Assembly: GCF_041248615.1 (NCBI RefSeq)
Contig: NZ_CP158426.1
Reading direction: 5' to 3' (one strand)
Length of the DNA: 64,000 nucleotides
Origin: Escherichia coli
GTDB lineage: Bacteria > Pseudomonadota > Gammaproteobacteria > Enterobacterales > Enterobacteriaceae
The translations under genes were made by a program, and so were the position numbers. Under the pieces are notes generated by a model. That model did not search any database. It was not told where the DNA came from and saw nothing but the letters and a program-made list of their open reading frames with translations. The first letter of the stretch is position 1. The number at the start of each line of letters is the position of its first letter. Of this stretch, positions 2,577 through 42,557 are shown piece by piece.

Positions 2577-5500
2577 TTATCTGTTTAGCGTTGCGCGAAT
2601 AATCGGCCCAATTTTTTCAAATGCCCCTGGAGAGATAATATCCACATGCGCACAATCCTGACGATAGATATCCAGCTCGGCTATCCACGGCGACCAGACG
2701 CGTTCGGGATTCATACCTTCCTGAAGCGTGCGTTCAGCAACAAACAGCGTCGCTTTACCGTCAAACGGTACGCTATGAGCAGTCGTCAGCAGGCGCACAG
2801 CATCAGCGTAGTTGCCTTCAATGGTGGTAAACAACTCCGTTGAAGTACTTCCCTGCTGTGCCGCCAGGAAGGCCTCGCGCTCGCGGTTAATCTCCGCCAG
2901 CACTTCCGGGTCCAGGCCATTAGCCTCTTTTTCCTGCCAGTTTTGCGTTTCTGGCGGCCAGGTATCCAGCAAGCCAAGAAATGCCACCTGTTCGCCACGG
3001 GCACGCAGCCGCGCCGCAATACCCTGCGCCAGCGTACCGCCCAGCGAATAACCCAGCAGGTAATAAGGGCCGTGCGGTTGATGCTCAAGTAACGTTGCCA
3101 GATGCGCTTCGCAGACTTCATCCAGATTTGCCGCGGTCTGCATGGGGCCATTGGGGCGCGGCGACTGAATGCCGATAATCGACCATTGTGGATCGAGATA
3201 ACGCGAGAGCACGCTGAACTGCCAGGCAAAACCGGACGCAGGATGGAAACAAAACAGCGTCGGGCCATTACCTTCACGCAACGGCAGAATGGTTTCGAAT
3301 CCCATGCGCCGGGAGCTGTCTTCTTCACCATCAATAATCGTTGCCAGTTTGGCGACAGTTGACGCGACCATCACCTGCCCCGGCGTCACCTGGCGGGTAA
3401 ACTGCCGACTTAACTGCGCAGCCAGTTTCATTGCCAGTAGCGAATGACCGCCAAGCGCGAAGAAATCAGCATCGGCATCCTGCACGTCACAACCCAGCAA
3501 CGACGAGAATGCCGCGGCGATAATCGTTTCACTGCCCGCTTTCGGCGCACGCCCCGGCGCTTGTGCCTTCAGTTCAGGCAACGGTAAGGCTTTGCGATCC
3601 AGCTTGCCGTTGGCGCTAAGCGGCAACTGCGGAAGTTGCAGCAGAACCACGGGCACCATATGCGGTGGCAATGTTTCGCGCAACTGCGCCTGCAATGCAG
3701 TGGTATCCAACGGCAGGCCTGATTGCGACACCAGATACCCAACCAACTGACGCGCATCGCCTCCCGTTGCGGCAGCCTGGTTAATAACGCAGGCGTGGGT
3801 CACGGCCTGTTCAACGTCCGGCAGCGCCTGCATCACGCGATCGATTTCGCCCAGTTCGATACGCTGCCCGCGAATTTTTAGCTGATCGTCACTGCGCCCG
3901 AGGTACTCCACCGCGCCGTTATCCAGCCAGCGGGCAACGTCTCCGGTACGGTACATCCGTTCGCCAGGGGCAAAAGGATCGGCAATAAAGCGGCTGGCGG
4001 TCAGATCGGGTCGTCCGAGATAGCCCTGCGCCAGTTGTATGCCAGTGAGATAGAGATCTCCCGCCACACCCGGCGGCACCGGATGCATCATCGCATCAAG
4101 AATACGCAGGCCCGTATTCCACACCGGATAACCAATCGGCACACTGCTGCCGCGCACCTGTGCCAGTTCCTCGCCAAAAGCCGGATACCAGCTCACATCC
4201 ACCGCCGCTTCCGTTGGGCCATATAGATTATGCAACGGCGCGCTGGTTAACTGTTGCCATTCGCGGCATAAATCAGCCGGCAAGGCTTCACCGCTACAGA
4301 AAACCTGTTTCAACGTCGCGCAACTCTGGCGAGCGGTTTCGGGCGTCAGCGATGCAACAAATGCCGCCAGCATCGACGGCACAAAGTGCGTGGTCGTTAC
4401 GCCATATTCGGCAAAGAATTGCTGCATCGCGAGCGGGTCGCGGTGCGCTTCCGGTTCAGCCATCACCAGTTTAGCCCCGGCAATAAACGGCCAGAAAAAC
4501 TCCCACACCGAGACATCAAAACTGCACGGCGTTTTTTGGGCAACGACATCTTCGCCTGTAAGCGGGTAGTGGTTTTGCATCCAAAGCAGGCGGTTAACGA
4601 TAGCCGTCTGCCCGACCATTACCCCTTTCGGCCTGCCGGTAGAGCCAGAGGTAAAGATGATATAAGCCGTGTGGTGCGGTTGTGAAAGTTTCAGCGGCGC
4701 ACTGCCCTGCGGTGTAAGCGGGGCGTTATAGCAAAGGCGGGTTAAATCTGGAACATCGGCAAAGCGCGGCAGTTGATCGTCGGTGGTGATTAACAGCGAC
4801 GGACGCGCATCTTCCAGCATCATTTTCAGGCGATCGTCCGGATAGCCGGTATCCAGCGGTAACCAGGCCGCACCAGCCTCAACAATTGCATGTAGCGCCA
4901 GAGTCAAAAAGACCGAGCGCGGTAGCGCCACCGCCACGCTGTCGCCTGGTTTAACGCCGCGCTCACTCAGCAGATTCGCCAGCGCCACCACCTGCTCGCG
5001 CATTTCCCGATAGCTGAACAGGTAACGCACATCTGCCAGCGCCGGAGCATCCGGTGTTTTTGCCGCTTGTTCCGCCACCAGCGCGCTCAGCGTGGTTTCT
5101 GGAATCTCAACCTGAGTGGCGTTGATCTGCGCCAGCTGCACATATTCACCTGGCAGCATAATATCGACATCGCCGCACAACAGCGCCGGATCCGCGGCGA
5201 ACTGGGCAATCAGCATTTTCAGGCGTTCAGCGTGTTGAATTAACGTTGGCTCATCGTAACGCTGTTTATTGGCGAGGATCTCAATACTCAAATCACCGTG
5301 TTCATCCGGGAACAGTGCCAGTTCAAGGTCATTAACCGGACCGGTTGCCAGGGTATGGGTTTGCGCCTGAACACCAGGAATATCCAGTTGGTAATCAAAT
5401 ACCTTGATATTGAGTACCGGACCAAACAGCGGTTCATCACCTGCCGCTCGCCCGCTGTCACGGACAATTTGTTCGGCATCGTAACGTTGATGACGACGCA

Positions 5501-12364: not shown

Positions 12365-13492
<1,128 letters not shown>

Positions 13493-29443: not shown

Positions 29444-32400
29444 ATGAGTGAAGGACCAGGCGGGCCACAGGGAGCGACCGCAGGCGGTACGCTGGCAATG
29501 CGAATGCTGTCACAGCAGGCGATGGTCGCCAGCCAGATGAAACGGGCAGCCAACGACAAAGCCATTGCACAGATGCTGGCATCAAAAAAGTCCGGCCCCC
29601 CCGCCGCCAGGCTGGGCGATGAAATTCAGCACAAGAGTTTTTTGGGGGCGCTGGCAGGGGCCGTGCTGGGGGCGATAGTGACCATCGCAGAAGGTTGCCT
29701 GATTATGGCCGCCTGTGCCACCGGCCCTTATGCGCTGGTTCTGGTGCCTGCGCTGATGTATGCCAGCTATAAGGCGAGTGATTATGTGGAGGAGAAACAG
29801 AACCAGCTTGAATCATGGATAAACAGCTTTTGTGACACGGACGGCGCCATCAATACCGGTTCTGAAAATGTAAACATTAACGGAAAGCCCGCTGCCAGGG
29901 CCGCCGTCACCCTTCCCCCTCCTCCCCCACCTGGAGCAATACCTGAAATCCCACAGGGGGAACCCTCATGGGGTGATATTGCCACTGACCTGCTTGAATC
30001 GGCAGCGGAAAAAGCAGTACCACTGGCGAAGGCCTGGGGGAACGCTGTTATCACCCTGACGGACAGCAATGCCGGTTTTATGGATCGCGTCAGCGCCGGC
30101 GCATCGCTTCTGTTTCCCGCCGGTCCGGTATTAATGGAGTTTGCCACCATGGTGGGCGGGCGTGGCGAAATCAAAAAAGACGTGGATTTCCCGGAAGCCG
30201 GTGAGGACACGGCGCTCTGCGACAAGGAGAACAAACCGCCGAGGATAGCCCAGGGCAGCAGCAACGTCTTTATCAACAATCAGCCTGCTGCACGCAAGGG
30301 GGACAAACTGGAGTGCAGTGCGGCAATCGTGGAAGGTTCGCCGGACGTCTTTATTGGGGGTGAGCAGGTCACCTATCTGGATATCCAGCCGGAGTTCCCG
30401 CCGTGGCAGAGAATGATCCTGGGGGGAATAACGATAGCCAGCTATCTTCTGCCGCCAGCGGGACTGCTGGGAAAACTGAAGAATCTGGCGAGACTCGGCA
30501 AACTGGGAAACCTGCTGGGGAAAAGCGGGAAGCTGCTGGGGGCAAAGCTCGGCGCGTTGCTGGGGAAAACAGGTAAGTCGTTAAAAAGTATTGCCAATAA
30601 AGTCATCAGATGGGTAACAGATCCTGTCGATCCGGTAACCGGCGCATACTGCGACGAACGTACCGACTTTACGCTGGGCCAGACACTCCCCCTCTCCTTC
30701 ACCCGTTTCCACAGTTCTGTACTGCCACTGCATGGCCTGACGGGCGTGGGCTGGAGCGACTCCTGGAGCGAATACGCCTGGGTGCGTGAACAGGGAAACC
30801 GGGTGGATATCATCAGCCAGGGAACCACGCTGAGATTTGCCTTCGACGGTGACAGTGATACGGCGGTTAACCCGTATCACGCCCAGTACATTCTGCGCCG
30901 CCGCGATGATTACCTGGAGCTGTTCGACAGGGATGCACTGAGCAGCCGCTTCTTTTATGACGCCTTTCCGGGAATGCGTCTGCGCCACCCGGTGACTGAC
31001 GATACCAGCGATGACCGTCTGGCACACAGCCCCGCAGACCGGATGTACATGCTGGGCGGGATGAGCGACACCGCCAGCAACCGCATCACGTTTGAGCGCG
31101 ACAGCCAGTACCGGATCACAGGTGTCAGTCACACTGACGGGATCCGGCTTAAACTGACGTACCACGCCAGCGGCTACCTGAAAGCCATTCACCGCACGGA
31201 TAACGGCATACAGACGCTGGCGACCTACGAACAGGATGCGCGGGGGCGGCTGACAGAAGCGGATGCGCGGCTGGACTACCACCTGTTTTATGAGTACGAC
31301 GCTGCGGACCGGATCATCCGCTGGTCCGATAACGACCAGACGTGGAGCCGTTTCACCTACGATGAACAGGGCCGGTGCGTGAATGTCACCGGGGCGGAGG
31401 GCTATTACAACGCCACGCTGGACTATGGTGACGGCTGCACCACCGTGACGGACGGCAAGGGCATTCACCGTTATTACTATGATCCTGACGGCAATATTCT
31501 GCGGGAAGCAGCGCCGGACGGCAGCACCACCATGTATGAATGGGATGAATTCCATCACCTGCTGGCCCGTCACTCCCCTGCCGGGCGGGTGGAGAAATTT
31601 GAATACAACGCCGCACACGGTCAGTTAAGCCGTTACACGGCGGCAGACGGCGCGGAGTGGCAGTACCGCTATGATGAGCGCGGCCTGCTCAGCAACATCA
31701 CCGACCCTGCCGGGCAGACGTGGACACAGCAGTGTGATGAACGCGGCCTGCCGGTAAGTCTGGTGTCGCCACAGGGCGAAGAGACCCGGCTGGCATACAC
31801 CGCTCAGGGGCTGCTGTCGGGAATATTCCGCCAGGATGAACGGCGTCTGGGCATAGAGTACGACCACCACAACCGGCCGGAAACACTCACCGACGTGATG
31901 GGCCGCGAACACCACACCGAATACAGTGGTCACGACCTGCCGGTGAAGATGCGCGGCCCCGGCGGTCAGTCAGTGCGCTTACAGTGGCAGCAGCACCATA
32001 AACTGAGTGGCCTTGAGCGCACTGGCACCGGCGCGGAAGGATTCCGCTACGACCGCCACGGCAACCTGCTGGCCTGGACGGACGGTAACGGTGTTGTCTG
32101 GACAATGGAATACGGCCCGTTTGATTTGCCGGTGGCGCGAACGGACGGTGAAGGCCACCGCTGGCAGTACCGCTACGATAAAGACACGCTGCAACTGACA
32201 GAAGTCATTAACCCGCAGGGTGAGTCATATCTTTATGTTCTGGATAACTGCGGCCGGGTGACGGAAGAGCATGACTGGGGCGGCGTGGTCTGGCGTTACC
32301 GCTATGACGCCGATGGCCTGTGTACCGCCAGGGTCAACGGCCTGGAGGAAACCATCCTCTACAGCCGGGACGCCGCAGGCCGCCTGGCAGAAGTCATCAC

Positions 32401-34303
32401 GCCGGAAGGCAAAACGCAGTATGCCTATGACAAATCCGGCAGGCTGACGGGTATCTTCAGCCCGGACGGCACATCACAGCGCACCGGCTATGACGAACGC
32501 GGGCGGGTGAATGTCACCACTCAGGGCCGACGGGCCATTGAATACCACTACCCCGACGAACACACCGTCATCCGCTGTATCCTGCCACCGGAAGATGAAC
32601 GCGACAGACACCCCGGTGAATCCCTGCTGAAAACCACGTACCGCTACAACGCCGCCGGAGAACTGACGGAGGTCATTCTGCCGGGGGATGAGACGCTGAC
32701 GTTCAGCCGTGATGAGGCAGGACGTGAAGTGCTCCGGCACAGTAACCGGGGTTTTGCCTGTGAACAGGGCTGGAATGCAGCCGGTCAGCCTGTCAGTCAG
32801 CGCGCCGGACTTTTCCCGGCAGAAGCCACATGGGGCGGGCTGCTCCCCTCACGGGTACGGGAGTACCGTTACGACAGCGCGGGTAATGTGTCAGGCGTCA
32901 CCAGCCGGGAAGATTACGGACGGGAAACACGGCGGGAATACCGGCTGGACCGGAACGGCCAGGTCACGGCGGTGACAGCCTCAGGCACCGGGCTGGGCTA
33001 TGGCGAAGGCGATGAGTCCTATGGCTATGACAGCTGCGGCTACCTGAAGGCGCAGTCTGCGGGCTGGCACCGGATAAGTGAAGAGACTGACCAGTATGCC
33101 GGAGGCCACCGGCTGAAACAGGCCGGAAACACGCAGTATGACTATGACGCCGCAGGCCGGATGGTCAGCCGCACCAGACACCGTGACGGCTATCGCCCGG
33201 AAACAGAGCGGTTCCGGTGGGACAGCCGTGACCAGCTGACCGGGTATTGCAGCGCACAGGGTGAGCAGTGGGAATACCGCCACGACGCCAGCGGCAGACG
33301 AACAGAGAAACGCTGCGACCGGAAGAAAATCCGCATCACGTACCTGTGGGACGGCGACAGTATTGCGGAAATCCGGGAATACCGCGATGATAAACTGTAC
33401 AGCGTACGGCACCTGGTGTTTAACGGCTTTGAGCTGATAAGCCAGCAGTTCAGCCGGGTACGGCAGGCGCATCCGTCGGTGGCCCCGCAGTGGGTGACAC
33501 GGACGAATCATGCGGTGAGCGACCTGACGGGCCGTCCGCTGATGCTCTTTAACAGTGAAGGTAAAACCGTCTGGCGACCGGGACAGACCAGCCTGTGGGG
33601 GCTGGCACTCAGCCTGCCCGCGGACACCGGCTACCCGGACCCGCGCGGGGAGCTGGACGCGGAAGCCGCCCCCGGCCTGCTGTATGCGGGACAGTGGCAG
33701 GATGCGGAATCGGGGCTGTGCTATAACCGGTTCCGGTACTACGAGCCGGAAACCGGGATGTACCTGGTGAGTGATCCGCTGGGGTTGCAGGGAGGGGAAC
33801 AGACTTACCGGTATGTGCCTAATCCGTGTGGGTATGTTGATCCGCTGGGGCTGGCAAAAACTTCTGTTCCCGTATCAATAGTAGAACCAAAAAAAATCAC
33901 TGGTAACTTTAAAACAATTCGAGAAAAATTAAGGCTTGCCAGGAATGGTGATGTTTCTGCACAAGCCGAAATTGCATACGCAAAATATATGCGTAGTTTG
34001 GGAAAGGATGTGCATTTCAATACACCTCCGAATCGCTCAGTATCAATGGCAGATTTTACAATTGATGGAATCCAGGTTGATACAAAATTATTGAGTGGTA
34101 TAGGCGGAAATGCTGCAAAAAATGTTAACAAGGGAGTTGGCCAGGTGGGAGATAATGGTATCGTCCTGGTAATTAGAAATTCTAATTCCAAAAATACACT
34201 TGAGGAATTTCATGAATTCTTTGGAAACTTCAAACCTAATAATTCAACAGTTCGAGTTGAAGTGATTGATCAATCCGTTTTAGAACCTTTTTGGAGATTT
34301 TAA
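29444..34303 (+). CDS. rhs: prePAAR/PAAR-Rhs polymorphic toxin (full length) with variable C-terminal toxin domain CT1
   Basis: 1619 aa; prePAAR motif AARLGDEIQH (29603-29632), two TM helices, PAAR-like region, many YD repeats, demarcation PxxxxDPxGL (PCGYVDPLGL), then AT-rich 149-aa CT. Confidence 0.95.
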   Translation: MSEGPGGPQGATAGGTLAMRMLSQQAMVASQMKRAANDKAIAQMLASKKSGPPAARLGDEIQHKSFLGALAGAVLGAIVTIAEGCLIMAACATGPYALVLVPALMYASYKASDYVEEKQNQLESWINSFCDTDGAINTGSENVNINGKPAARAAVTLPPPPPPGAIPEIPQGEPSWGDIATDLLESAAEKAVPLAKAWGNAVITLTDSNAGFMDRVSAGASLLFPAGPVLMEFATMVGGRGEIKKDVDFPEAGEDTALCDKENKPPRIAQGSSNVFINNQPAARKGDKLECSAAIVEGSPDVFIGGEQVTYLDIQPEFPPWQRMILGGITIASYLLPPAGLLGKLKNLARLGKLGNLLGKSGKLLGAKLGALLGKTGKSLKSIANKVIRWVTDPVDPVTGAYCDERTDFTLGQTLPLSFTRFHSSVLPLHGLTGVGWSDSWSEYAWVREQGNRVDIISQGTTLRFAFDGDSDTAVNPYHAQYILRRRDDYLELFDRDALSSRFFYDAFPGMRLRHPVTDDTSDDRLAHSPADRMYMLGGMSDTASNRITFERDSQYRITGVSHTDGIRLKLTYHASGYLKAIHRTDNGIQTLATYEQDARGRLTEADARLDYHLFYEYDAADRIIRWSDNDQTWSRFTYDEQGRCVNVTGAEGYYNATLDYGDGCTTVTDGKGIHRYYYDPDGNILREAAPDGSTTMYEWDEFHHLLARHSPAGRVEKFEYNAAHGQLSRYTAADGAEWQYRYDERGLLSNITDPAGQTWTQQCDERGLPVSLVSPQGEETRLAYTAQGLLSGIFRQDERRLGIEYDHHNRPETLTDVMGREHHTEYSGHDLPVKMRGPGGQSVRLQWQQHHKLSGLERTGTGAEGFRYDRHGNLLAWTDGNGVVWTMEYGPFDLPVARTDGEGHRWQYRYDKDTLQLTEVINPQGESYLYVLDNCGRVTEEHDWGGVVWRYRYDADGLCTARVNGLEETILYSRDAAGRLAEVITPEGKTQYAYDKSGRLTGIFSPDGTSQRTGYDERGRVNVTTQGRRAIEYHYPDEHTVIRCILPPEDERDRHPGESLLKTTYRYNAAGELTEVILPGDETLTFSRDEAGREVLRHSNRGFACEQGWNAAGQPVSQRAGLFPAEATWGGLLPSRVREYRYDSAGNVSGVTSREDYGRETRREYRLDRNGQVTAVTASGTGLGYGEGDESYGYDSCGYLKAQSAGWHRISEETDQYAGGHRLKQAGNTQYDYDAAGRMVSRTRHRDGYRPETERFRWDSRDQLTGYCSAQGEQWEYRHDASGRRTEKRCDRKKIRITYLWDGDSIAEIREYRDDKLYSVRHLVFNGFELISQQFSRVRQAHPSVAPQWVTRTNHAVSDLTGRPLMLFNSEGKTVWRPGQTSLWGLALSLPADTGYPDPRGELDAEAAPGLLYAGQWQDAESGLCYNRFRYYEPETGMYLVSDPLGLQGGEQTYRYVPNPCGYVDPLGLAKTSVPVSIVEPKKITGNFKTIREKLRLARNGDVSAQAEIAYAKYMRSLGKDVHFNTPPNRSVSMADFTIDGIQVDTKLLSGIGGNAAKNVNKGVGQVGDNGIVLVIRNSNSKNTLEEFHEFFGNFKPNNSTVRVEVIDQSVLEPFWRF

Positions 34304-34307
34304 AAAT

Positions 34308-34784
34308 ATGATCACCAAATCAAGTATACTCATAGAGTATAAAGATAAAAGTAAACTAACCGAAAGTATTTATAAGTTTGTAAATGCTCTAGATATTGAC
34401 TTTTCGATATTAAAATATGACTACTTTGATGTAAATGAGTATAAAAAAAATATTACTTATGACACATCTTTTATTGACAAAGATGCAGAATATATTGAAT
34501 TATTAGCGAAGATTGATTTTTCTTATGAAGTTGATTTCGGCACATCAACAACATCGATTGAAAGCAAGTATCTTCCATCTCTAACTGATTTCATCGCTCA
34601 ATCACTATCACAACAATTAAATTGTAACATAATAACCAGCTTTAAACCATTAAGTGGAGATGAGTTTTGCCCAATAACATATTTTTCAAAAGGTAAAGAA
34701 GTTATCAATTTTACGACATTTAATTCAAATTGTTGGGATGGGGTATACTGGGTAAAAAAAAGGAGGCAAACAAATATCCGCTAA
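34308..34784 (+). CDS. Putative cognate immunity protein for Rhs CT1
   Basis: 158 aa, AT-rich ORF 5 nt after the rhs stop, in the usual immunity position. Confidence 0.6.
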   Translation: MITKSSILIEYKDKSKLTESIYKFVNALDIDFSILKYDYFDVNEYKKNITYDTSFIDKDAEYIELLAKIDFSYEVDFGTSTTSIESKYLPSLTDFIAQSLSQQLNCNIITSFKPLSGDEFCPITYFSKGKEVINFTTFNSNCWDGVYWVKKRRQTNIR

Positions 34785-34902
34785 CGTAGTTTTTCAATAG
34801 CTACACCATGTCACGTAACATGATGCCTGGATATTAACAGAAAGACAGAAGTGGACTCAGCGGTGAGATGAACGCAGCCTGAGTCTGAAGTACGACCTGC
34901 CG

Positions 34903-37233
34903 GTGAAGATGCGCGGCCCCGGCGGTCAGTCAGTGCGGTTGCAGTGGCAGCAGCACCATAAACTGAGTGGCCTTGAGCGCACTGGCACCGGCGCGGAAGG
35001 GTTCAGCTATGACCGCCACGGCAACCTGCTGGCCTGGACGGACGGCAATGGTGTTGTCTGGACAATGGAGTACGGCCCGTTCGATTTGCCGGTGGCGCGA
35101 ACGGACGGTGAAGGCCACCGCTGGCAGTACCGCTATGATAAAGACACGCTGCAACTGACAGAAGTCATTAACCCGCAGGGTGAGTCATATCTTTATGTTC
35201 TGGATAACTGCGGCCGGGTGACGGAAGAGCATGACTGGGGCGGCGTGGTCTGGCGTTACCGCTATGACGCCGATGGCCTGTGTACCGCCAGGGTCAACGG
35301 CCTGGAGGAAACCATCCTCTACAGCCGGGACGACGCAGGCCGCCTGGCAGAAGTCATCACGCCGGAAGGCAAAACGCAGTATGCGTATGACAAATCCGGC
35401 AGGCTGACGGGTATCTTCAGCCCGGACGGCACATCACAGCGCACCGGCTATGACGAACGCGGGCGGGTGAATGTCACCACTCAGGGCCGACGGGCCATTG
35501 AATACCACTACCCCGATGAACACACCGTCATCCGCTGTATCCTGCCACCGGAAGATGAACGCGACAGACACCCCGGTGAATCCCTGCTGAAAACCACGTA
35601 CCGCTACAACGCAGCCGGAGAACTGGCAGAGGTCATCCTGCCGGAGGATGAGACGCTGACGTTCAGCCGTGATGAGGCAGGACGTGAAGTGCTCCGGCAC
35701 AGTAACCGGGGTTTTGCCTGTGAGCAGGGCTGGAATGCAGCCGGTCAGCTTACCAGCCAGCGCGCCGGACTTTTCCCGGCAGAAGCCACATGGGGCGGGC
35801 TGCTCCCCTCACGGGTACGGGAGTACCGTTACGACAGCGCGGGTAATGTGTCAGGCGTCACCAGCCGGGAAGATTACGGACGGGAAACACGGCGGGAATA
35901 CCGGCTGGACCGGAACGGCCAGGTCACGGCGGTGACAGCCTCAGGCACCGGGCTGGGCTATGGCGAAGGCGATGAGTCCTATGGCTATGACAGCTGCGGC
36001 TACCTGAAGGCGCAGTCTGCGGGCTGGCACCGGATAAGTGAAGAGACTGACCAGTATGCCGGAGGCCACCGGCTGAAACAGGCCGGAAACACGCAGTATG
36101 ACTATGACGCCGCAGGCCGGATGGTCAGCCGCACCAGACACCGTGACGGCTATCGCCCGGAAACAGAGCGGTTCCGGTGGGACAGCCGTGACCAGCTGAC
36201 CGGGTATTGCAGCGCACAGGGTGAGCAGTGGGAATACCGCCACGACGCCAGCGGCAGACGAACAGAGAAACGCTGCGACCGGAAGAAAATCCGCATCACG
36301 TACCTGTGGGACGGCGACAGTATTGCGGAAATCCGGGAATACCGCGATGATAAACTGTACAGCGTACGGCACCTGGTGTTTAACGGCTTTGAGCTGATAA
36401 GCCAGCAGTTCAGCCGGGTACGGCAGGCGCATCCGTCGGTGGCCCCGCAGTGGGTGACACGGACGAATCATGCGGTGAGCGACCTGACGGGCCGTCCGCT
36501 GATGCTCTTTAACAGTGAAGGTAAAACCGTCTGGCGACCGGGACAGACCAGCCTGTGGGGGCTGGCACTCAGCCTGCCCGCGGACACCGGCTACCCGGAC
36601 CCGCGCGGGGAACTGGACGCGGAAGCCGACCCCGGCCTGCTGTATGCAGGACAGTGGCAGGATGCGGAATCCGGGCTGTGCTATAACCGGTTCCGGTATT
36701 ACGAGCCGGAAACAGGGATGTACCTGGTGAGTGATCCGCTGGGGTTGCTGGGGGGTGAGCAGACTTACCGGTATGTGCCGAATCCGTGTGGGTATGTTGA
36801 TCCTTTGGGATTAGCAACATGTCCCATAATCAGACAACGGGTGCTGGCTAACCTTGAAGCCAGTCGGGCAGCAAGGGCTGCATCTAATTTTGGTAAGAAA
36901 AATATCTATGATTTTATCAAGGCAACTCAATCTGCTATCCCTGGCACCTCTATCCCAAAATCTTTTGAGATTATAACTGCTAATGGTACTTTCTGGGTAC
37001 ACCCAAATGCTACAAAACATATGGCTGAATATTTGACTCGGAACGGTCTCTCACATTCAACTTCTGTAGAGAGCCAAATAATGTTAACAAGTTTTCACGA
37101 AGCTGTAAGTTTGGCTAGTGCTCAAGGTATAAAGTATGAAGAAATGATGAATGTTGGCGGCTGGGAACTAGTATTTAGTCAAGCTAAATCTGACTCGGCT
37201 TTATCAGTTATTAAACATGCTCTTTATAAATGA
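34903..37233 (+). CDS. rhs: Orphan 5'-truncated rhs fragment (core repeat plus distinct C-terminal toxin CT2)
   Basis: 776-aa ORF with GTG start; 34892-36813 nearly identical to main rhs 31932-33853; PxxxxDPxGL followed by unrelated 139-aa CT. Confidence 0.85.
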   Translation: MKMRGPGGQSVRLQWQQHHKLSGLERTGTGAEGFSYDRHGNLLAWTDGNGVVWTMEYGPFDLPVARTDGEGHRWQYRYDKDTLQLTEVINPQGESYLYVLDNCGRVTEEHDWGGVVWRYRYDADGLCTARVNGLEETILYSRDDAGRLAEVITPEGKTQYAYDKSGRLTGIFSPDGTSQRTGYDERGRVNVTTQGRRAIEYHYPDEHTVIRCILPPEDERDRHPGESLLKTTYRYNAAGELAEVILPEDETLTFSRDEAGREVLRHSNRGFACEQGWNAAGQLTSQRAGLFPAEATWGGLLPSRVREYRYDSAGNVSGVTSREDYGRETRREYRLDRNGQVTAVTASGTGLGYGEGDESYGYDSCGYLKAQSAGWHRISEETDQYAGGHRLKQAGNTQYDYDAAGRMVSRTRHRDGYRPETERFRWDSRDQLTGYCSAQGEQWEYRHDASGRRTEKRCDRKKIRITYLWDGDSIAEIREYRDDKLYSVRHLVFNGFELISQQFSRVRQAHPSVAPQWVTRTNHAVSDLTGRPLMLFNSEGKTVWRPGQTSLWGLALSLPADTGYPDPRGELDAEADPGLLYAGQWQDAESGLCYNRFRYYEPETGMYLVSDPLGLLGGEQTYRYVPNPCGYVDPLGLATCPIIRQRVLANLEASRAARAASNFGKKNIYDFIKATQSAIPGTSIPKSFEIITANGTFWVHPNATKHMAEYLTRNGLSHSTSVESQIMLTSFHEAVSLASAQGIKYEEMMNVGGWELVFSQAKSDSALSVIKHALYK

Positions 37234-37763
37234 CGATTATGCTTACATTAGAAAATGAAACAAACTACAAAGATGTTGTTGTTAATATAGATGAATTTGT
37301 ACCTTTTGATATAACTTTTGGAAAGGGGAGCGAACAGTGTTTGTACTGGAGAGGCGGCAATGGTAAAAGTTCTTTGGTTGAAGTTGGGTTAAATATGTAC
37401 AGCGGAGAAGTAAGTAACATCACACTAGCAAATATCGATTCAGGTGAAATTAACATTACAGATGAGATGTTAGCCAACAACCTTCCTGAAATACAAGGGT
37501 CTGTTATATTTCAGACAAGCGAGTGGCTTAATAAAGACATTTCCGAATACTCAAACAGATTTATTGATGATTTTGATTGCAATATCAAGTTAATAATTGG
37601 TAGTAATTACATTAAATTATTATTTAAAAAAGCAACAAATCCCATTTGTTATATCATTAATAGGAATATAAGATTTGGTTTTTCTTTGAGTAGGGAACTT
37701 TCGACATTGGAAATATTAGACCTCAATCAAGAAAAATTAGATATTCTAAAGTTATTTAAATAG
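37230..37763 (+). CDS. Putative cognate immunity protein for orphan CT2
   Basis: 177 aa AT-rich ORF whose ATG overlaps the rhs-CT2 stop (ATGA). Confidence 0.6.
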   Translation: MTIMLTLENETNYKDVVVNIDEFVPFDITFGKGSEQCLYWRGGNGKSSLVEVGLNMYSGEVSNITLANIDSGEINITDEMLANNLPEIQGSVIFQTSEWLNKDISEYSNRFIDDFDCNIKLIIGSNYIKLLFKKATNPICYIINRNIRFGFSLSRELSTLEILDLNQEKLDILKLFK

Positions 37764-38242
37764 TTTTAGTGTTTGAAACTTACCGAGAGATGATAGCTAT
37801 GAATGAATACAAAAACATCCATCTTGGAGGAAACAATGGAATGTTAATCCATTAAAAAACATACTTCAATATCTTTAGTGAAGAAAGAGTTGTATGAAAG
37901 AAATATATCTTATGTGAGCGACATGATGCATGCTAATTATATTATTGGCCGGAAATTTTATGATGATAGCAAAAAGGAGGGGTTATTTCTGTAAGAATGG
38001 ATATACCCGCAGGGTTTGAACCAGACATTTATTTGTTGAAGTCTAAGATCCAAATGGAAGCATTTATATCCCTCAGATATTATGCGTTGACGGGTTGATA
38101 AAGATACTTTTAGAGGGTTAATAAATGGAGAACGTATAATAAATCTCTTAAACAAACTATAACCTGTACTAATGAAAAAAATGGGAATAGATAAGTTAAT
38201 AGCCTATTCTAAAAATGGTAAAGTGGTTTTACTTCCAAAATA

Positions 38243-38686
38243 ATGGAGTTTAGTATGAAAATCGAAGCTAATTCCCTTACTCATCCCTATGACTACAACG
38301 CCTCACTGAACAATTATTTACATTATTTTGAGAATTTCTCTCGTAATGACTGGAATAAAGATTCATGTGGAGGATATTTTACTTTTAGAGATGATGACAG
38401 AGAGTGTGTTTTGTTTTTTGTGAATTATGGTGATAATTTTTCATTGCGCTATGATTGTACACAAAGTTCTGATGGAATAGTGTCATGCTGGTATAGTAAC
38501 CATGAAGATGATAAAATGAATATCATCGTCGATGCTGATACAGAACAATTTATCCCTTTAGGTTCTTGCTTACCTCCTGATATTACTTTATCAGTAATAA
38601 AAGATTTTTTCAAAAATCCTTTAGAGAAATCAAAAAAAGTAAAATGGATGAATGCAGATGACATTGACTGGTCATCTGTGTATTAA
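38243..38686 (+). CDS. Hypothetical protein, possible orphan immunity protein
   Basis: 147 aa AT-rich ORF inside the Rhs island with no adjacent toxin; no recognised motif. Confidence 0.4.
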   Translation: MEFSMKIEANSLTHPYDYNASLNNYLHYFENFSRNDWNKDSCGGYFTFRDDDRECVLFFVNYGDNFSLRYDCTQSSDGIVSCWYSNHEDDKMNIIVDADTEQFIPLGSCLPPDITLSVIKDFFKNPLEKSKKVKWMNADDIDWSSVY

Positions 38687-39297: not shown

Positions 39298-39513
39298 ATG
39301 GTAGTTATTGAAGATAATGATCTTTATGACCCTATAAAAGCAGAGGGAGTTGATGGATGGATGTATTATAAATTCATATTATCCATATTCCCATTAAAGG
39401 GAGTAGACACAACATTAGAATATCAACGGGAATTATCTTTTCTTTTCTTAAAGAAATTAAAAGATGCGGGTCTGTTAGGTGAACTTATATGCGAGGATGA
39501 TTTTCATGACTGA
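39298..39513 (+). CDS. Hypothetical small protein (71 aa), possible immunity-gene remnant
   Basis: ORF only; AT-rich; within Rhs island. Confidence 0.25.
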   Translation: MVVIEDNDLYDPIKAEGVDGWMYYKFILSIFPLKGVDTTLEYQRELSFLFLKKLKDAGLLGELICEDDFHD

Positions 39514-39577
39514 TGACCTCTACATATATCCTCAGTTCGTGGCTGGTATTACATGATCTGACAGGGAAAGATCGTAG

Positions 39578-39873
39578 CGAAATCAAAAAAGACGTGGATT
39601 TCCCGGAAGCCGGTGAAGACACAGCGCTCTGCGACAAGGAGACTAAACCGCCGAGGATAACCCAGGGCAGCAGCAACGTTTTTATCAACAATCAGCCCGC
39701 CGCGCGCAAGGGGGACAAACTGGAGTGCAGTGCGGCGATCGTGGGAGGTTCGCCGGACGTCTTTATTGGGGGTGAGCAGGTCACCTATCTGGATATCCAG
39801 CCGGAGTTCCCGCCGTGGCAGAGAATGATCCTGGGGGGAATAACGATAGCCAGCTATCTTCTGCCGCCAGCGC
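39578..39873 (+). pseudogene. Fragment of a PAAR-Rhs N-terminal (PAAR) region
   Basis: About 296 bp nearly identical to main rhs 30166-30461; lies in track ORF 39513-39890; abutted on the right by H-repeat end sequence. Confidence 0.75.
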
Positions 39874-39960
39874 AGGGAAAGATCACGTAACGCTGCTTTT
39901 TTGTACTAAATAATTCGCACTAAATGTTCAATAATTGAGATATTCCTTATTACCTAAATA
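39874..39960. mobile_element. Left-terminus remnant (about 85 bp) of an H-repeat/ISAs1-family element
   Basis: Matches the first ~90 bp of the complete H-repeat at 43242-43335 (cagggaaagatca...ttgtactaaataattcgca...ttgagatattcct). Confidence 0.55.
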
Positions 39961-40003: not shown

Positions 40004-40372
40004 GTGGGTATGAATAAAAATGAAATCCATTTCCCTATAGGATATGGTTGGTTGAATGAAAAAAAAATTATTGGCACCAGTGAATTTAGCCAATTAGAAC
40101 CATGGTTTTATCTAGATGAGAACAGGTGTTTTTTTGCGAATAAAAAATGGCCAAATGTCATAGGTGAACAATTATTCGCTTTTGCTAAACGTCAAGATAA
40201 TGATGAATTGGCTTGTTTCAAAATTAATGAATCTGGAGTCTGTGAGGGTGTTTATTTAATTAATGGGTGGACTCCTAACGGGTTTGATATTATACAATTT
40301 TACCCTGATTTTTGGGAATGGGTACATTTGGTTATACAAGATGTCTCGGAGTGGATTGATAATAAAGGATAA
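40004..40372 (+). CDS. Hypothetical protein, possible orphan immunity protein
   Basis: 122 aa AT-rich ORF upstream of orphan rhs-CT3; no recognised motif. Confidence 0.4.
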   Translation: MGMNKNEIHFPIGYGWLNEKKIIGTSEFSQLEPWFYLDENRCFFANKKWPNVIGEQLFAFAKRQDNDELACFKINESGVCEGVYLINGWTPNGFDIIQFYPDFWEWVHLVIQDVSEWIDNKG

Positions 40373-40401: not shown

Positions 40402-41100
40402 TTGAAGGTAACGTGGAGTGGTGGGCGGAGCAGCCTGCCCGCAGACACAGACTACCCGGACCCGCGCGGGGAGCGGGACGCGGAAGCCGACCCCGGCCTG
40501 CTGTATGCAGGACAGTGGCAGGATGCGGAATCCGGACTGTGCTATAACCGGTTCCGGTATTACGAGCCGGAAACCGGGATGTACCTGGTGAGTGATCCCC
40601 TGGGGTTGCTGGGGGGTGAGCAGACTTACCGGTATGTGCCTAATCCTAGTGGGTATGTTGATCCTCTGGGATTAGCAACGTGTCCTATACTCAGACAGTG
40701 GGCGCTGACTAACCTTGAAGCCAGTCGGGCAGCAAGGGCTGCATCTAATTTTGGTAAGCCTCTGGTCCAGCGAAATAAAACGATTGGCGATAAAGTAAGG
40801 GATATGATTGCCAAAGAGAGGGGAACCACTCTAATTGAACAAAATTATAGAGTGACAGGAGGATTAAAGCGTATTGACGTTGTTGATGGAGTAACGGGTA
40901 TAGAATCTAAAGTCGGTCGAACAGGGTTAACAACCCGAGTACGGCAAGAGGTAGCGCGGGATATTAAGATTTTGAGAAGTGAGCAACTTGATCAAATTGA
41001 ATGGGTGTTTACAAGAAGTTCAACTACAGGGAAGATTGGGCCAACTAAACCACTTGAAGATCTTTTAAATAAACATGGTATACCGATTATTTATCGATAA
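40402..41100 (+). CDS. rhs: Orphan rhs C-terminal fragment (short core remnant plus toxin CT3 with possible PD-(D/E)xK-like motif)
   Basis: 232-aa ORF with TTG start; 40432-40674 homologous to the end of the main rhs core; PxxxxDPxGL then 141-aa CT containing RIDVVDGVTGIESK. Confidence 0.8.
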   Translation: MKVTWSGGRSSLPADTDYPDPRGERDAEADPGLLYAGQWQDAESGLCYNRFRYYEPETGMYLVSDPLGLLGGEQTYRYVPNPSGYVDPLGLATCPILRQWALTNLEASRAARAASNFGKPLVQRNKTIGDKVRDMIAKERGTTLIEQNYRVTGGLKRIDVVDGVTGIESKVGRTGLTTRVRQEVARDIKILRSEQLDQIEWVFTRSSTTGKIGPTKPLEDLLNKHGIPIIYR

Positions 41101-41111
41101 GGAGTGATAGT

Positions 41112-41681
41112 GTGAAACTCAAACCGATTGGTGACTTTTTAAACAAAAATGGGTTTATAAAAAATGGTAACAATGATTTTTATAAAGTTCATGATAAGTT
41201 TGTAAATTGTATAAATTTTCAAAAAAAGAGTACAGGTGATATTTTTTTTATAAACACAGGTGTTCATCCTGTGTTCGAAAATTTTTGCAATGAACCACCG
41301 AAAAAAGAAATAGATTGTTACATCCGTAACCGTGTGTGTGATGGACTAAGTATATCTTTGCTGCATTCTTTTGAAGGTAGTGAGTTTGTTATCAGTGAGA
41401 TAAAAAACAAAGCGTTTTGTTTTTTTGAATACTTTGATTCATTGAATAAAATATTCGATGCTATTCGTGTTGTAGATATTGAAGAGAGAAATATTTGCGA
41501 TGAGCTAAGTGGTGTAAGCAGCGTAAGATTAGCTTTGATGTGTATGAACTACCAGTATGAGAAAAAAAAATTTAGCCTTGTTTCTGATTTTGCGAACTAT
41601 GGTCTTGCTATATCTAGAGGCCCGGTACCGAAAAAAGCATTGGATTTGCCCCTATATTTCCAGACACCTGTTATCACTTAA
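41112..41681 (+). CDS. Putative immunity protein for CT3, 3' end disrupted by IS2
   Basis: 189-aa ORF; last 13 codons lie inside IS2; the original frame resumes after the IS2 target duplication. Confidence 0.55.
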
Positions 41682-42557
41682 CCCATTACTGGCCTGCTGC
41701 CGCAGATATTCCCGTGGCGAGCGATAACCCAGTGCACTATGCGGATGCCATTCGTTATAATGCTCGAACGCCTCTGCAAGGTTCTTTGCTGCCGTTAACC
41801 CGTCTGGTTTAGGCATGATACTGATGTAGTCACGCTTTATCGTTTTCACGAAGCTCTCTGCTATGCCGTTACTCTCCGGACTCCGCACCGCCGTGTTCTT
41901 CGGTTCAAGCCCCAATATCCGGGCAAACTGCCGTGTTTCATTAGCCCGGTAGCATGAACCATTATCCGTCAGCCACTCTACTGGAGACGCCGGAAGCTCG
42001 TTGCCGAAGCGGCGTTCCACCGCTCCCAGCATGACGTCCTGTACTGTTTCACTGTCGAAGCCGCCCGTAGTGACTGCCCAGTGCAGTGCCTCACGGTCAC
42101 AGCAGTCCAGCGCGAACGTGACTCGCAGTTTTTCTCCGTTATCACAGCGGAACTCGAACCCGTCAGAGCACCATCGTTGATTGCTTTCTTTCACGGCCAC
42201 TTTGCCAGTATGTGCCCGTTTCGATGGCGGTACAGCGGTTTTTCGCTCAAGCAACAGCGCATTCTGGCGCATGATCCGGTAAACACGTTTGGCATTGATC
42301 GCAGGCGTACCATCAAGTTCGGCCTGTCTGCGAAGCAGCGCCCATACCCGACGATAACCATACGTGGGCAGCTCTCCGATAACATGGTGTATACGGAGAA
42401 GCACATCCGTATCATCTGAGTGACGGCTGCGGCGACCATCTTTCCAGTCATCGGTTCGTCTGAGAATTACGTGCAACTGCGCACGCGACACCCGGAGACA
42501 ACGGCTGACTAAGCTTACTCCCCATCCCCGGGCAATAAGGGCGCGTGCGCTATCCAC
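41652..42557 (-). CDS. insD: IS2 transposase OrfB
   Basis: 301 aa integrase-core protein recognised as IS2 InsD. Confidence 0.95.

Follow-up and report, generated by a model that had tools for sequence, protein, structure and literature searches.

Organization of the rhs locus and the CT2 cassette

The analysed window, a stretch of 64,000 nucleotides from Escherichia coli (contig NZ_CP158426.1), holds a full-length prePAAR-Rhs gene and, downstream of it, an orphan rhs fragment ending in a different C-terminal toxin domain, CT2, which is followed by a putative immunity gene. The main gene carries the toxin domain CT1, lies downstream of vgrG and of a gene for an Eag/DcrB-like chaperone, encodes an N-terminus with AARLGDEIQH and hydrophobic helices, and is succeeded by an immunity-like ORF (34308-34784). 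The features considered here are the following:

29444-34303, + strand: main prePAAR-Rhs effector with CT1, full length (ORF list; RefSeq annotation of the identical E. coli NRZ14408 locus)
34892-36803, + strand: orphan copy of the rhs core, matching main rhs 31932-33843 at 98.2% identity over 1912 bp (window compared with itself by blastn)
34903-37233, + strand: orphan rhs reading frame of 776 aa, with a GTG start and no Shine-Dalgarno sequence (ORF list)
36784-36813, + strand: PxxxxDPxGL motif (PCGYVDPLGL), read from the sequence, marking where the conserved Rhs core ends
36814-36897, + strand: linker of 28 aa, ATCPIIRQRVLANLEAS(RAA)2SNFGK, common to the CT3 orphan
36898-37233, + strand: predicted BECR-fold tRNase domain of the CdiA-CT EC869 family, 111 aa and stop (7VMC_B match, AF2, Foldseek)
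37018-37020, + strand: His codon corresponding to His216 of CdiA-CT EC869 (H of NATKHM; alignment)
37216-37218, + strand: His codon corresponding to His281 of CdiA-CT EC869 (H of KHALYK; alignment)
37230-37763, + strand: putative immunity gene of the CdiI EC869 family, product WP_001370340.1, starting at ATG 37230 or at the homologue-supported ATG 37239

CT2 occupies 36814-37230 on the + strand, with its stop codon TGA at 37231-37233, and the DPLGL element (36799-36813) of the motif, as defined in PMC3150448, is in frame with the orphan ORF. The ORF and the reading of the sequence therefore agree exactly with a preliminary description of this DNA, which had placed a toxin of 139 codons here. 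That description had also considered CT2 to be unrelated to CT1, and indeed BLASTP gives only a match at chance level (E 0.10). Directly behind DPLGL, CT2 is not unique: its first 28 aa (36814-36897) recur in a third orphan at 40431-40758, with 94% nucleotide identity (blastn, window against itself), so that the toxin-specific part is 36898-37230. The RAA unit of this linker is present in two, three or eight copies depending on the strain.

The 776-aa orphan ORF matches the NCBIfam models for the YD repeat, the RHS core and Rhs_assc_core. Only from main codon ~831-834 onward is it homologous to the main rhs, and it is devoid of prePAAR, PAAR, the transmembrane region and the first ~833 Rhs codons. 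The region encoding the toxin domain and the immunity protein has a GC content of 26-36%, as against ~60% in the core. The fragment combines all the hallmarks of an orphan cassette, namely a truncated core with YD repeats and PxxxxDPxGL that lacks delivery and translation signals and lies after a full-length rhs and its immunity gene.

A 177-codon ORF ending at 37763 starts with an ATG (37230-37232) that overlaps the toxin's TGA (A-TGA), as had been noted earlier, and translational coupling of CT2 and the immunity gene through this ATGA is plausible. The overlap is real, but translation may begin elsewhere, since both RefSeq and the homologues point to the second ATG, at 37239, 5 nt past the toxin stop, which would yield a protein of 174 aa. 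Immunity homologues in other genera begin at the equivalent 'ML(K/T)L', and the start at 37239 thus seems better supported by homologues than the ATGA start. Inspection of the sequence revealed no recognisable Shine-Dalgarno sequence before either ATG.

Affiliation of the toxin domain and of the immunity protein

The toxin had been regarded as being of unknown function and without an assignable family, a view that is overturned by the comparison with solved structures. A phmmer search of these aligned CT2 residues 29-139 with residues 197-306 of 7VMC_B at 64% identity (E 8.1e-41), the match covering query residues 15-139 and reaching the very C-terminus; the nuclease domain corresponds to residues 29-139. 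7VMC_B is the toxin chain of the CdiA-CT/CdiI complex of E. coli O157:H7 EC869 (PDB 7VMC; Wang et al. 2022, PMC9071432; Jones et al. 2017 PNAS as cited there), and the similarity extends over its whole nuclease domain of ~111 aa. A profile search gave an E of 2.5e-54 against the same chain; this profile was built from 20 short, unnamed fragments, the only matches of a word-indexed protein search with the toxin domain. The downstream ORF in turn is homologous to the CdiI of that complex, 7VMC_C (E 3.4e-18), and values of 8e-41 and 3e-18 against one solved toxin/immunity complex place both proteins far beyond chance. The domain is absent only from Pfam and NCBIfam: Pfam-A gave no match to CT2 or to the immunity ORF apart from a single spurious line (LisH_2, E 0.1), and NCBIfam yielded Rhs core models only, with no match in CT2 or the immunity protein.

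The profile and structure searches proposed in the preliminary description converge on this known toxin. The AF2 model of CT2 (pLDDT 90.1) has the order beta-beta-beta-alpha-alpha-beta-beta-beta and shows the two three-stranded sheets around helix alpha3 that characterize the EC869 fold. Foldseek superimposes it on 7vmc_B with a TM of 0.93 and an rmsd of 1.4 A over 111 columns (64% identity), and besides this chain no PDB match had an E below 0.1. RelE/ParE/YoeB type II toxins give a weak fold match (Foldseek probability 0.75-0.85, TM ~0.42-0.44), as expected for the BECR superfold; however, their identity is 10-14% and their E is above 0.1, CT2 has no RelB- or ParD-type antitoxin and is fused to a secreted Rhs carrier. 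Membership in that group was rejected, TM values of ~0.4 reflecting the superfold only. Metallo-beta-lactamases in the fold list (TM ~0.2) are noise.

The residues on which the toxicity of CdiA-CT EC869 depends are largely retained. H216A reduces its toxicity and H281A is catalytically dead (PMC9071432), and both histidines are identical in CT2; among the 150 family representatives listed, the His216 equivalent is invariant and the His281 equivalent is kept in 149. Arg271 is replaced by Lys, with R or K at this position in 140 of the 150, and Arg263 by Gly at a position that is not conserved in the family (Gly in 35 of the 150) and at which R263A has little effect in EC869 (PMC9071432). Moreover, the residues through which CdiA-CT EC869 contacts EF-Tu domain II (Tyr220, Leu221, Gln235, Met237 and Tyr284; PMC9071432) are all five identical in the alignment. 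The conserved-looking histidine-rich patch pointed out earlier, TFWVHPNATKHMAEY, is present and contains the invariant His equivalent to His216, but its first His (WVHPN) varies among H, N and A across homologues. This variability speaks against a metal-type His cluster, and a metal-binding reading of CT2 was likewise discarded, the two invariant histidines being 66 residues apart and matching the catalytic-site histidines of EC869.

On the evidence of sequence and predicted structure, the toxin part of CT2 is a member of the CdiA-CT EC869 tRNase family, ordinary and previously unannotated. This family comprises 840 cluster representatives at 50% identity, carried by CdiA, Rhs, PT-HINT and other proteins, and in the 150 representatives listed of these 840 the domain lies at the C-terminus or a few residues away from it. 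The CdiA-borne form occurs in 35 E. coli genomes at ~70% nucleotide identity, restricted to the toxin domain. A literature search found no papers describing an Rhs-borne EC869-type tRNase. CT2 belongs to this toxin-domain family, yet it is no CDI system: a CdiB/CdiA (type V) effector was rejected, since CT2 is carried by an Rhs core with PxxxxDPxGL and the locus has the order vgrG, Eag chaperone, prePAAR-Rhs.

The earlier view of the two genes as a toxin/immunity pair stands, the proteins being homologues of chains B and C of 7VMC. A gene of the beta-sandwich family of the cognate CdiI EC869 lies directly downstream of the toxin, and the same pairing of toxin and CdiI-like ORF recurs in three other loci, after CdiA in Faucicola and in locus L004 and after Rhs in Paenibacillus, the last of which is Gram-positive. 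The immunity protein was modelled with modest confidence (pLDDT 63), the model's sole significant fold match being 7vmc_C (E 5.6e-12, TM 0.66), and the identity of the protein is about 28-33% to CdiI EC869 and 29% over 170 aa to the CdiI of L004. At such identity and model confidence, neutralisation of CT2 is inferred from homology and gene order, and the ORF is taken to be the cognate antidote of CT2. A word-indexed search with the immunity protein retrieved Escherichia proteins only, and WP_001370340.1 is identical in all loci inspected. Some RefSeq records call it an 'RNA-binding protein'. The 'EC869-like CdiI' islet of S. Typhi (PMC7400221) was set aside, as it concerns an unrelated immunity protein, that of the EC869 o11 DNase, which is of another family.

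Orphan status, proposed function and alternative readings

CT2 and the ORF after it are best explained, with a probability of about 0.82, as an orphan toxin/immunity cassette, displaced within a T6SS prePAAR-Rhs effector locus, silent but re-armable, and encoding a putative BECR tRNase of the EC869 type and its cognate immunity protein. By analogy with CdiA-CT EC869, for which cleavage of the acceptor stem at 71/72, stimulated by EF-Tu, EF-Ts and GTP, is established (PMC9071432), CT2 would bind EF-Tu domain II, use the EF-Tu:GTP:EF-Ts complex as a scaffold and cleave the acceptor stem on its 3' strand, between nucleotides 71 and 72, so that a 2',3'-cyclic phosphate remains. Its substrates would be those tRNAs (Gln, Asn, Trp) in which the discriminator is G73 and the 1-72 pair is weak, and translation in the target cell would halt after cleavage. 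The beta-sandwich immunity protein would mask the active-site face of CT2. In this strain the orphan toxin is most likely silent, because the cassette has neither a PAAR or transmembrane delivery region nor a ribosome-binding site. Recombination across the 1.9-kb repeat with the main rhs could fuse CT2 to the main gene and re-arm it, an event with a precedent in the recombinational activation of an Rhs orphan (PMC3967940), and meanwhile the immunity gene may shield the cell against E. coli bearing CT2 on an intact Rhs.

Such strains exist. In strain A11, a CT2 identical except for the number of RAA repeats sits on an intact Rhs of 1612 aa whose gene follows vgrG and Eag, and in O121:H19 FWSEC0006 an intact 1609-aa Rhs is tipped by a CT2 variant with one residue changed, A to T, beside the second catalytic His. 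In strain JNU, a different incoming toxin domain precedes CT2. Several strains with CT2 on the main rhs have a nonsense codon at position 740 of that gene and, therefore, the toxin is not deployed in every carrier strain. A scan of 34300-38300 for promoters and terminators found no excess over shuffled sequence, the promoter-site count being below the shuffle mean; with no more sites than in shuffled sequence, the scan is silent on expression, and expression of the orphan immunity gene is an assumption.

The existence of intact Rhs-CT2 effectors would give the immunity gene a plausible use of its own, and CT2 might then be a decaying remnant of effector displacement that is kept only as orphan immunity against Rhs-CT2. 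Although the constancy of WP_001370340.1 and the orphan immunity arrays from sequential effector displacement documented in PMC5361080 are in line with this reading, we regard it as rather unlikely: the CT2 frame is intact and without visible decay, the protein equals the intact-Rhs version save for the linker repeat number, and 1.9 kb of 98% identical core has been kept for recombination. It parts from the re-armable cassette solely on whether re-arming ever occurs. The pair could instead be active in its producer as a growth regulator resembling a type II toxin-antitoxin (TA) module, with a promoter within the rhs core and an internal start. Main and orphan rhs-CT/rhsI of S. Typhimurium are expressed from a transcription start site that precedes the PxxxxDPxGL coding sequence by 89 nt, and they act as TA modules (PMC7043789). 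In the window, the corresponding conserved stretch encodes an in-frame Met, the ATG of ETGMYLVSDP, ~95 nt upstream of DPLGL. However, that stretch contains no sigma-70-like site, and this ATG is not preceded by an obvious Shine-Dalgarno sequence; both the regulator and the use of this start appear improbable.

As for the target, CT2 could have the EC869 fold and yet act on other tRNAs or on rRNA, or operate independently of EF-Tu/EF-Ts like CdiA-CT EC3006. The differing 36% of domain residues, chiefly in loops and a surface helix, and the exchanges at Arg263 and Arg271 leave room for this, BECR toxins of similar fold vary in specificity and cofactor need (PMC9071432), and the related CdiA-CT 96.154 reportedly binds EF-Tu weakly (PMC9086364). 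The identity of both key histidines and of all EF-Tu contacts, together with the frequency of Gly263 in the family and the near-neutral R263A exchange, makes a changed target doubtful, even if at 64% identity the tRNA specificity or the EF-Ts requirement could differ from that of EC869. Less probable still is a functionally shifted T6SS tRNase that acts on another set of tRNAs or is less strict in its cofactor need, that is expressed internally with its partner in a TA-like manner, or whose variable (RAA)n linker tunes how the toxin is released or how active it is once Rhs has cleaved itself.

Relation to known systems and significance

The EC869 system and CT2 have in common the nuclease domain with its modelled fold, catalytic histidines and EF-Tu contacts, and an immunity protein of the same family encoded directly after the toxin, and differ at Arg263 and Arg271. 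They also differ in their carriers: EC869 uses a T5SS CdiA, in which VENN marks the boundary and a cytoplasm-entry domain of ~170 aa is present, whereas CT2 belongs to a T6SS prePAAR-Rhs, in which the boundary is DPLGL and the linker measures 28 aa. As an orphan, the CT2 of the window lacks a delivery domain. Since the immunity proteins are only ~30% identical, cross-protection between CT2 and EC869 is unlikely. The arrangement of the cassette resembles the orphan rhs-CT/rhsI modules described previously (Poole et al. 2011, PMC3150448; Koskiniemi et al. 2014, PMC3967940), in which a partial core, PxxxxDPxGL, the toxin domain and the immunity gene follow a full-length rhs, a long repeat is available for recombination and the same toxin domain is found on a full-length Rhs elsewhere. 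However, the orphan modules of Dickeya and Salmonella carry other toxin domains, and re-arming of CT2 is a proposal from sequence. CdiA-CT NC101, CdiA-CT Kp342 and Salmonella Rhs2/SciX also have a BECR-type fold and act on translation through EF-Tu, and Rhs2 (bioRxiv 10.64898/2026.05.10.723254) is likewise an orphan Rhs toxin binding EF-Tu. Nevertheless, no sequence similarity between these toxins and CT2 is detectable, the Kp342 structure 6cp9_E matches the CT2 model with a Foldseek E of 1.3 and a TM of only 0.30, and Rhs2 has an Ntox47 / 5T86-like domain and another immunity fold.

The assignment of CT2 extends a known toxin/immunity family and opens no new kind of biology. Genes of this family remain 'hypothetical' because they have no Pfam or NCBIfam model, and with this assignment a concrete prediction for one T6SS effector becomes available for 135 complete E. 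coli genomes, among them those of O121:H19, of an O103 isolate and of many clinical isolates of human origin. Moreover, the CdiA-borne and Rhs-borne forms, 64% identical, make up a natural pair for the transfer of a presumably EF-Tu-dependent tRNase between type V and type VI delivery, which also lets the speed at which immunity specificity diverges be studied.

Layout of the Rhs island

The window is E. coli chromosomal DNA, with 100% identity to strain NRZ14408 across the CT2 region, and the CT2 cassette sits in a T6SS accessory island bounded by cusS on one side and nfrB on the other, with the following gene order:

vgrG and a DcrB-like (Eag) chaperone gene, the first genes of the island
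29444-34303, full-length Rhs that has a prePAAR motif, TM helices and, at its end, CT1
34308-34784, small ORF of CT1
34903-37233, rhs fragment ending in CT2
37230-37763, ORF after CT2
40402-41100, third orphan, preceded by more small ORFs and a PAAR fragment and followed by IS elements

The CT and immunity DNA has a GC content of 26-36% versus ~60% in the Rhs core, and such a contrast is the usual mark of an imported cassette. Several low-GC small ORFs between the CT2 cassette and the third orphan (among 38243-38686, 39298-39513, 39513-39890, and 40004-40372) have no family match and are possibly orphan immunity genes. Moreover, 39513-39890 is a piece of Rhs PAAR sequence that repeats main Rhs residues ~240-340, and together with these small ORFs it has the look of a leftover from earlier displacements. 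The toxin part of the third orphan, CT3, has no Pfam match and no PDB sequence match, and the ORF that follows it (41112-41681) is a DUF4304 protein according to RefSeq, despite which NCBIfam returned nothing. An IS3-family transposase gene (41652-42557, minus strand) overlaps the 3' end of this ORF, an ISAs1 element lies further downstream in the identical locus of NRZ14408, and these IS3-family and ISAs1 elements form the nfrB-side boundary of the island. CT1 (33844-34303) and its downstream 158-aa ORF gave a sole line, CdiA_C PF18451 at E 0.14, and no significant match in Pfam, NCBIfam, or PDB sequences; of the two toxins, CT2 is now the better explained.

CT2 and the tRNA nuclease of strain EC869

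The DPLGL boundary occupies 36799-36813, CT2 the 139 codons of 36814-37230, and the TGA stop 37231-37233, exactly as in the preliminary description, which also rightly held CT2 to be unrelated to CT1 (BLASTP E 0.10). CT2 has no model in Pfam-A or NCBIfam, which is why neither that description nor RefSeq could name it. A word-indexed protein search returned 20 short unnamed homologues (50-70% identity), whose alignment contains the invariant blocks GT.IP..F, W..PNATKHM.E, and V.KHA.Y. The search of solved structures is decisive for naming CT2: the family profile matches PDB 7VMC chain B, 'tRNA nuclease CdiA', at E 2.5e-54, and CT2 alone does so at E 8.1e-41 with 64% identity, the match extending to the final residue. 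The 111-aa domain as modelled by AF2 (pLDDT 90.1) superposes on 7vmc_B with a TM score of 0.93 and an rmsd of 1.4 A, and no other fold match had E < 0.1. Sequence match and predicted fold thus overturn the earlier claim of an unknown family.

In 7VMC, EF-Tu, CdiA-CT, and CdiI of E. coli EC869 form one complex. Its toxin prefers tRNAs with a G73 discriminator and a weak 1-72 pair, leaves a 2',3'-cyclic phosphate, accepts tRNA-Trp in vitro as well as, with lower efficiency, tRNA-fMet, and works better with EF-Tu, EF-Ts, and GTP (PMC9071432). Toxicity is reduced by H216A, H281A, and R271A, and hardly by R263A or Y220A, and EF-Tu Phe218 and Glu259 touch toxin residues Tyr220, Leu221, Gln235, Met237, and Tyr284 (PMC9071432). 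In CT2, the H of NATKHM (37018-37020) corresponds to His216 and that of KHALYK (37216-37218) to His281 (residue numbers are those of the PDB chain minus 21), and none of the five residues that touch EF-Tu has changed; Arg271 is replaced by Lys and Arg263 by Gly. Among 150 diverse family representatives, H216 and Q235 are present in all, H281 in 149, and R or K at 271 in 140, while position 263 is free to vary, with Gly in 35. Given this mapping and conservation, the histidine-rich patch remarked on earlier holds a single catalytic-site residue, the His216 equivalent, its other histidine being variable in homologues. CT2 would accordingly be expected to cut the acceptor stems of Gln/Asn-type tRNA, with an activity that may depend on EF-Tu, EF-Ts, and GTP; a shifted specificity or cofactor need, for which the two substituted arginines speak and against which the intact contact set does, seems improbable.

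The first 28 residues past DPLGL (36814-36897), a linker in common with CT3 (94% nucleotide identity, divergent beyond), fall outside the ordered nuclease domain. They include a 9-bp Arg-Ala-Ala unit (36862-36879, with equivalents in loci L008 and L009 of other genomes), present in two copies in the window and O121:H19, three in A11, and eight in JNU; a terminator-like hairpin scored in the same stretch (36868-36881) is probably due to chance. CdiA-CT EC869 carries a ~170-aa N-terminal part ahead of its modelled nuclease domain (residues 175-285), whereas CT2 has only this linker; the Rhs form is thus the nuclease alone, tethered by a short and flexible segment. To reach the cytoplasm of the target it would presumably rely on the prePAAR/TM region of the carrier, a role assumed from established knowledge of prePAAR effectors.

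Immunity gene and breadth of the family

The 177-aa ORF is similar to CdiI EC869 (7VMC chain C; E 3.4e-18), and its AF2 model, moderate only (pLDDT 63), has 7vmc_C as its single significant PDB fold match (E 5.6e-12, TM 0.66, 28% identity). By homology, CT2 and this ORF thus correspond to both partners of one complex, which supports the toxin/immunity reading advanced earlier. In three unrelated loci (CdiA orphan arrays of Faucicola and of locus L004, and a Paenibacillus Rhs locus), a homologue of the window's ORF, 165-179 aa long, comes after a CT2 homologue (24-30% identity; BLASTP E 2e-19 and 6e-09). Among relatives, toxins are 50-65% identical and immunity proteins ~25-33%, which argues against cross-immunity; lower identity of immunity proteins than of toxins is typical of polymorphic toxin systems. 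The protein would neutralise CT2 by masking its active site. RefSeq names it (WP_001370340.1; window 37239-37763, 4425-4949 in locus L010) 'hypothetical protein' in most genomes and 'RNA-binding protein' in others, the latter probably a misleading transfer, since its 7VMC homologue is a toxin-binding immunity protein. The overlap of an ATG at 37230 with the toxin stop (ATGA) is real, and the start favoured by RefSeq and homologue alignment is the ATG at 37239, 5 nt past the stop; neither is preceded by a Shine-Dalgarno sequence, and coupling to toxin translation is plausible from either.

An exhaustive profile search (E <= 1e-3) yielded 840 cluster representatives, and in all 150 of those listed the domain ends at the C-terminus or within a few residues of it, in proteins of 98-3382 aa; carriers include VENN-type CdiA, DPxGL-type Rhs, and PT-HINT/intein-type proteins. 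A CdiA-borne form (~70% nucleotide identity, toxin domain only) occurs in 35 further E. coli genomes, including O157:H7 and O111:H8, annotated as 'contact-dependent inhibition effector tRNA nuclease'. A long array of orphans comes after the CdiA locus of Faucicola mancuniensis (CP171363.1, 1-8700); besides the CT2-family toxin and its immunity gene it contains an Ntox47 toxin and fragments of PT-VENN and PT-HINT type, and it adjoins a Rep3 replication gene and the cdiB/ShlB gene.

Orphan status and possible re-arming

Over 1912 bp the orphan (34892-36803) and the main rhs (31932-33843) are 98.2% identical. The orphan begins at about main codon 831-834 and has no Shine-Dalgarno sequence at its start; a promoter and terminator scan of the CT2 region gave nothing above chance. 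CT2 and its immunity gene occur in 135 of 5426 complete E. coli genomes, and the window's CT1/orphan junction in only six. CT2 ends an intact Rhs of 1609 or 1612 aa in O121:H19 FWSEC0006 and A11, lies on a main rhs with a nonsense codon at 740 in AR_0067 and EE72d, is a shorter orphan after yet another CT in JNU, and is an orphan after a CT1-bearing rhs in 4621. The AR_0067 and EE72d stops are identical (EW*YRYDERG; 12922-12924 in locus L001, with an equivalent in L006), the window is intact at that codon (EWQYRYDERG), and 4621 has the CT1/CT2 arrangement of the window with its main rhs annotated with an internal stop.

These arrangements fit a history in which an incoming CT displaced the resident one and left behind a spare still able to recombine, as has been reported for orphans of Rhs and CDI (PMC3150448; PMC3967940). 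The orphan toxin would be silent, its immunity gene expressed, and CT2 re-armed by recombination. That the cassette is an immunity-only remnant is a possible, if doubtful, alternative. In its favour, the immunity protein is identical across all loci checked; against it, the CT2 amino acids are those of the intact A11 Rhs, linker repeats aside. Internal, toxin-antitoxin-like expression of the orphan pair has a precedent in Salmonella (PMC7043789) and is unlikely here.

The sharing of CT domains by CdiA and Rhs has been known since 2011 (PMC3150448), and no paper describing an Rhs-borne EC869-type tRNase was found. CT2 and its immunity gene are an uncharacterised member, with no annotation in databases, of a known toxin/immunity family, carried here by another delivery platform.
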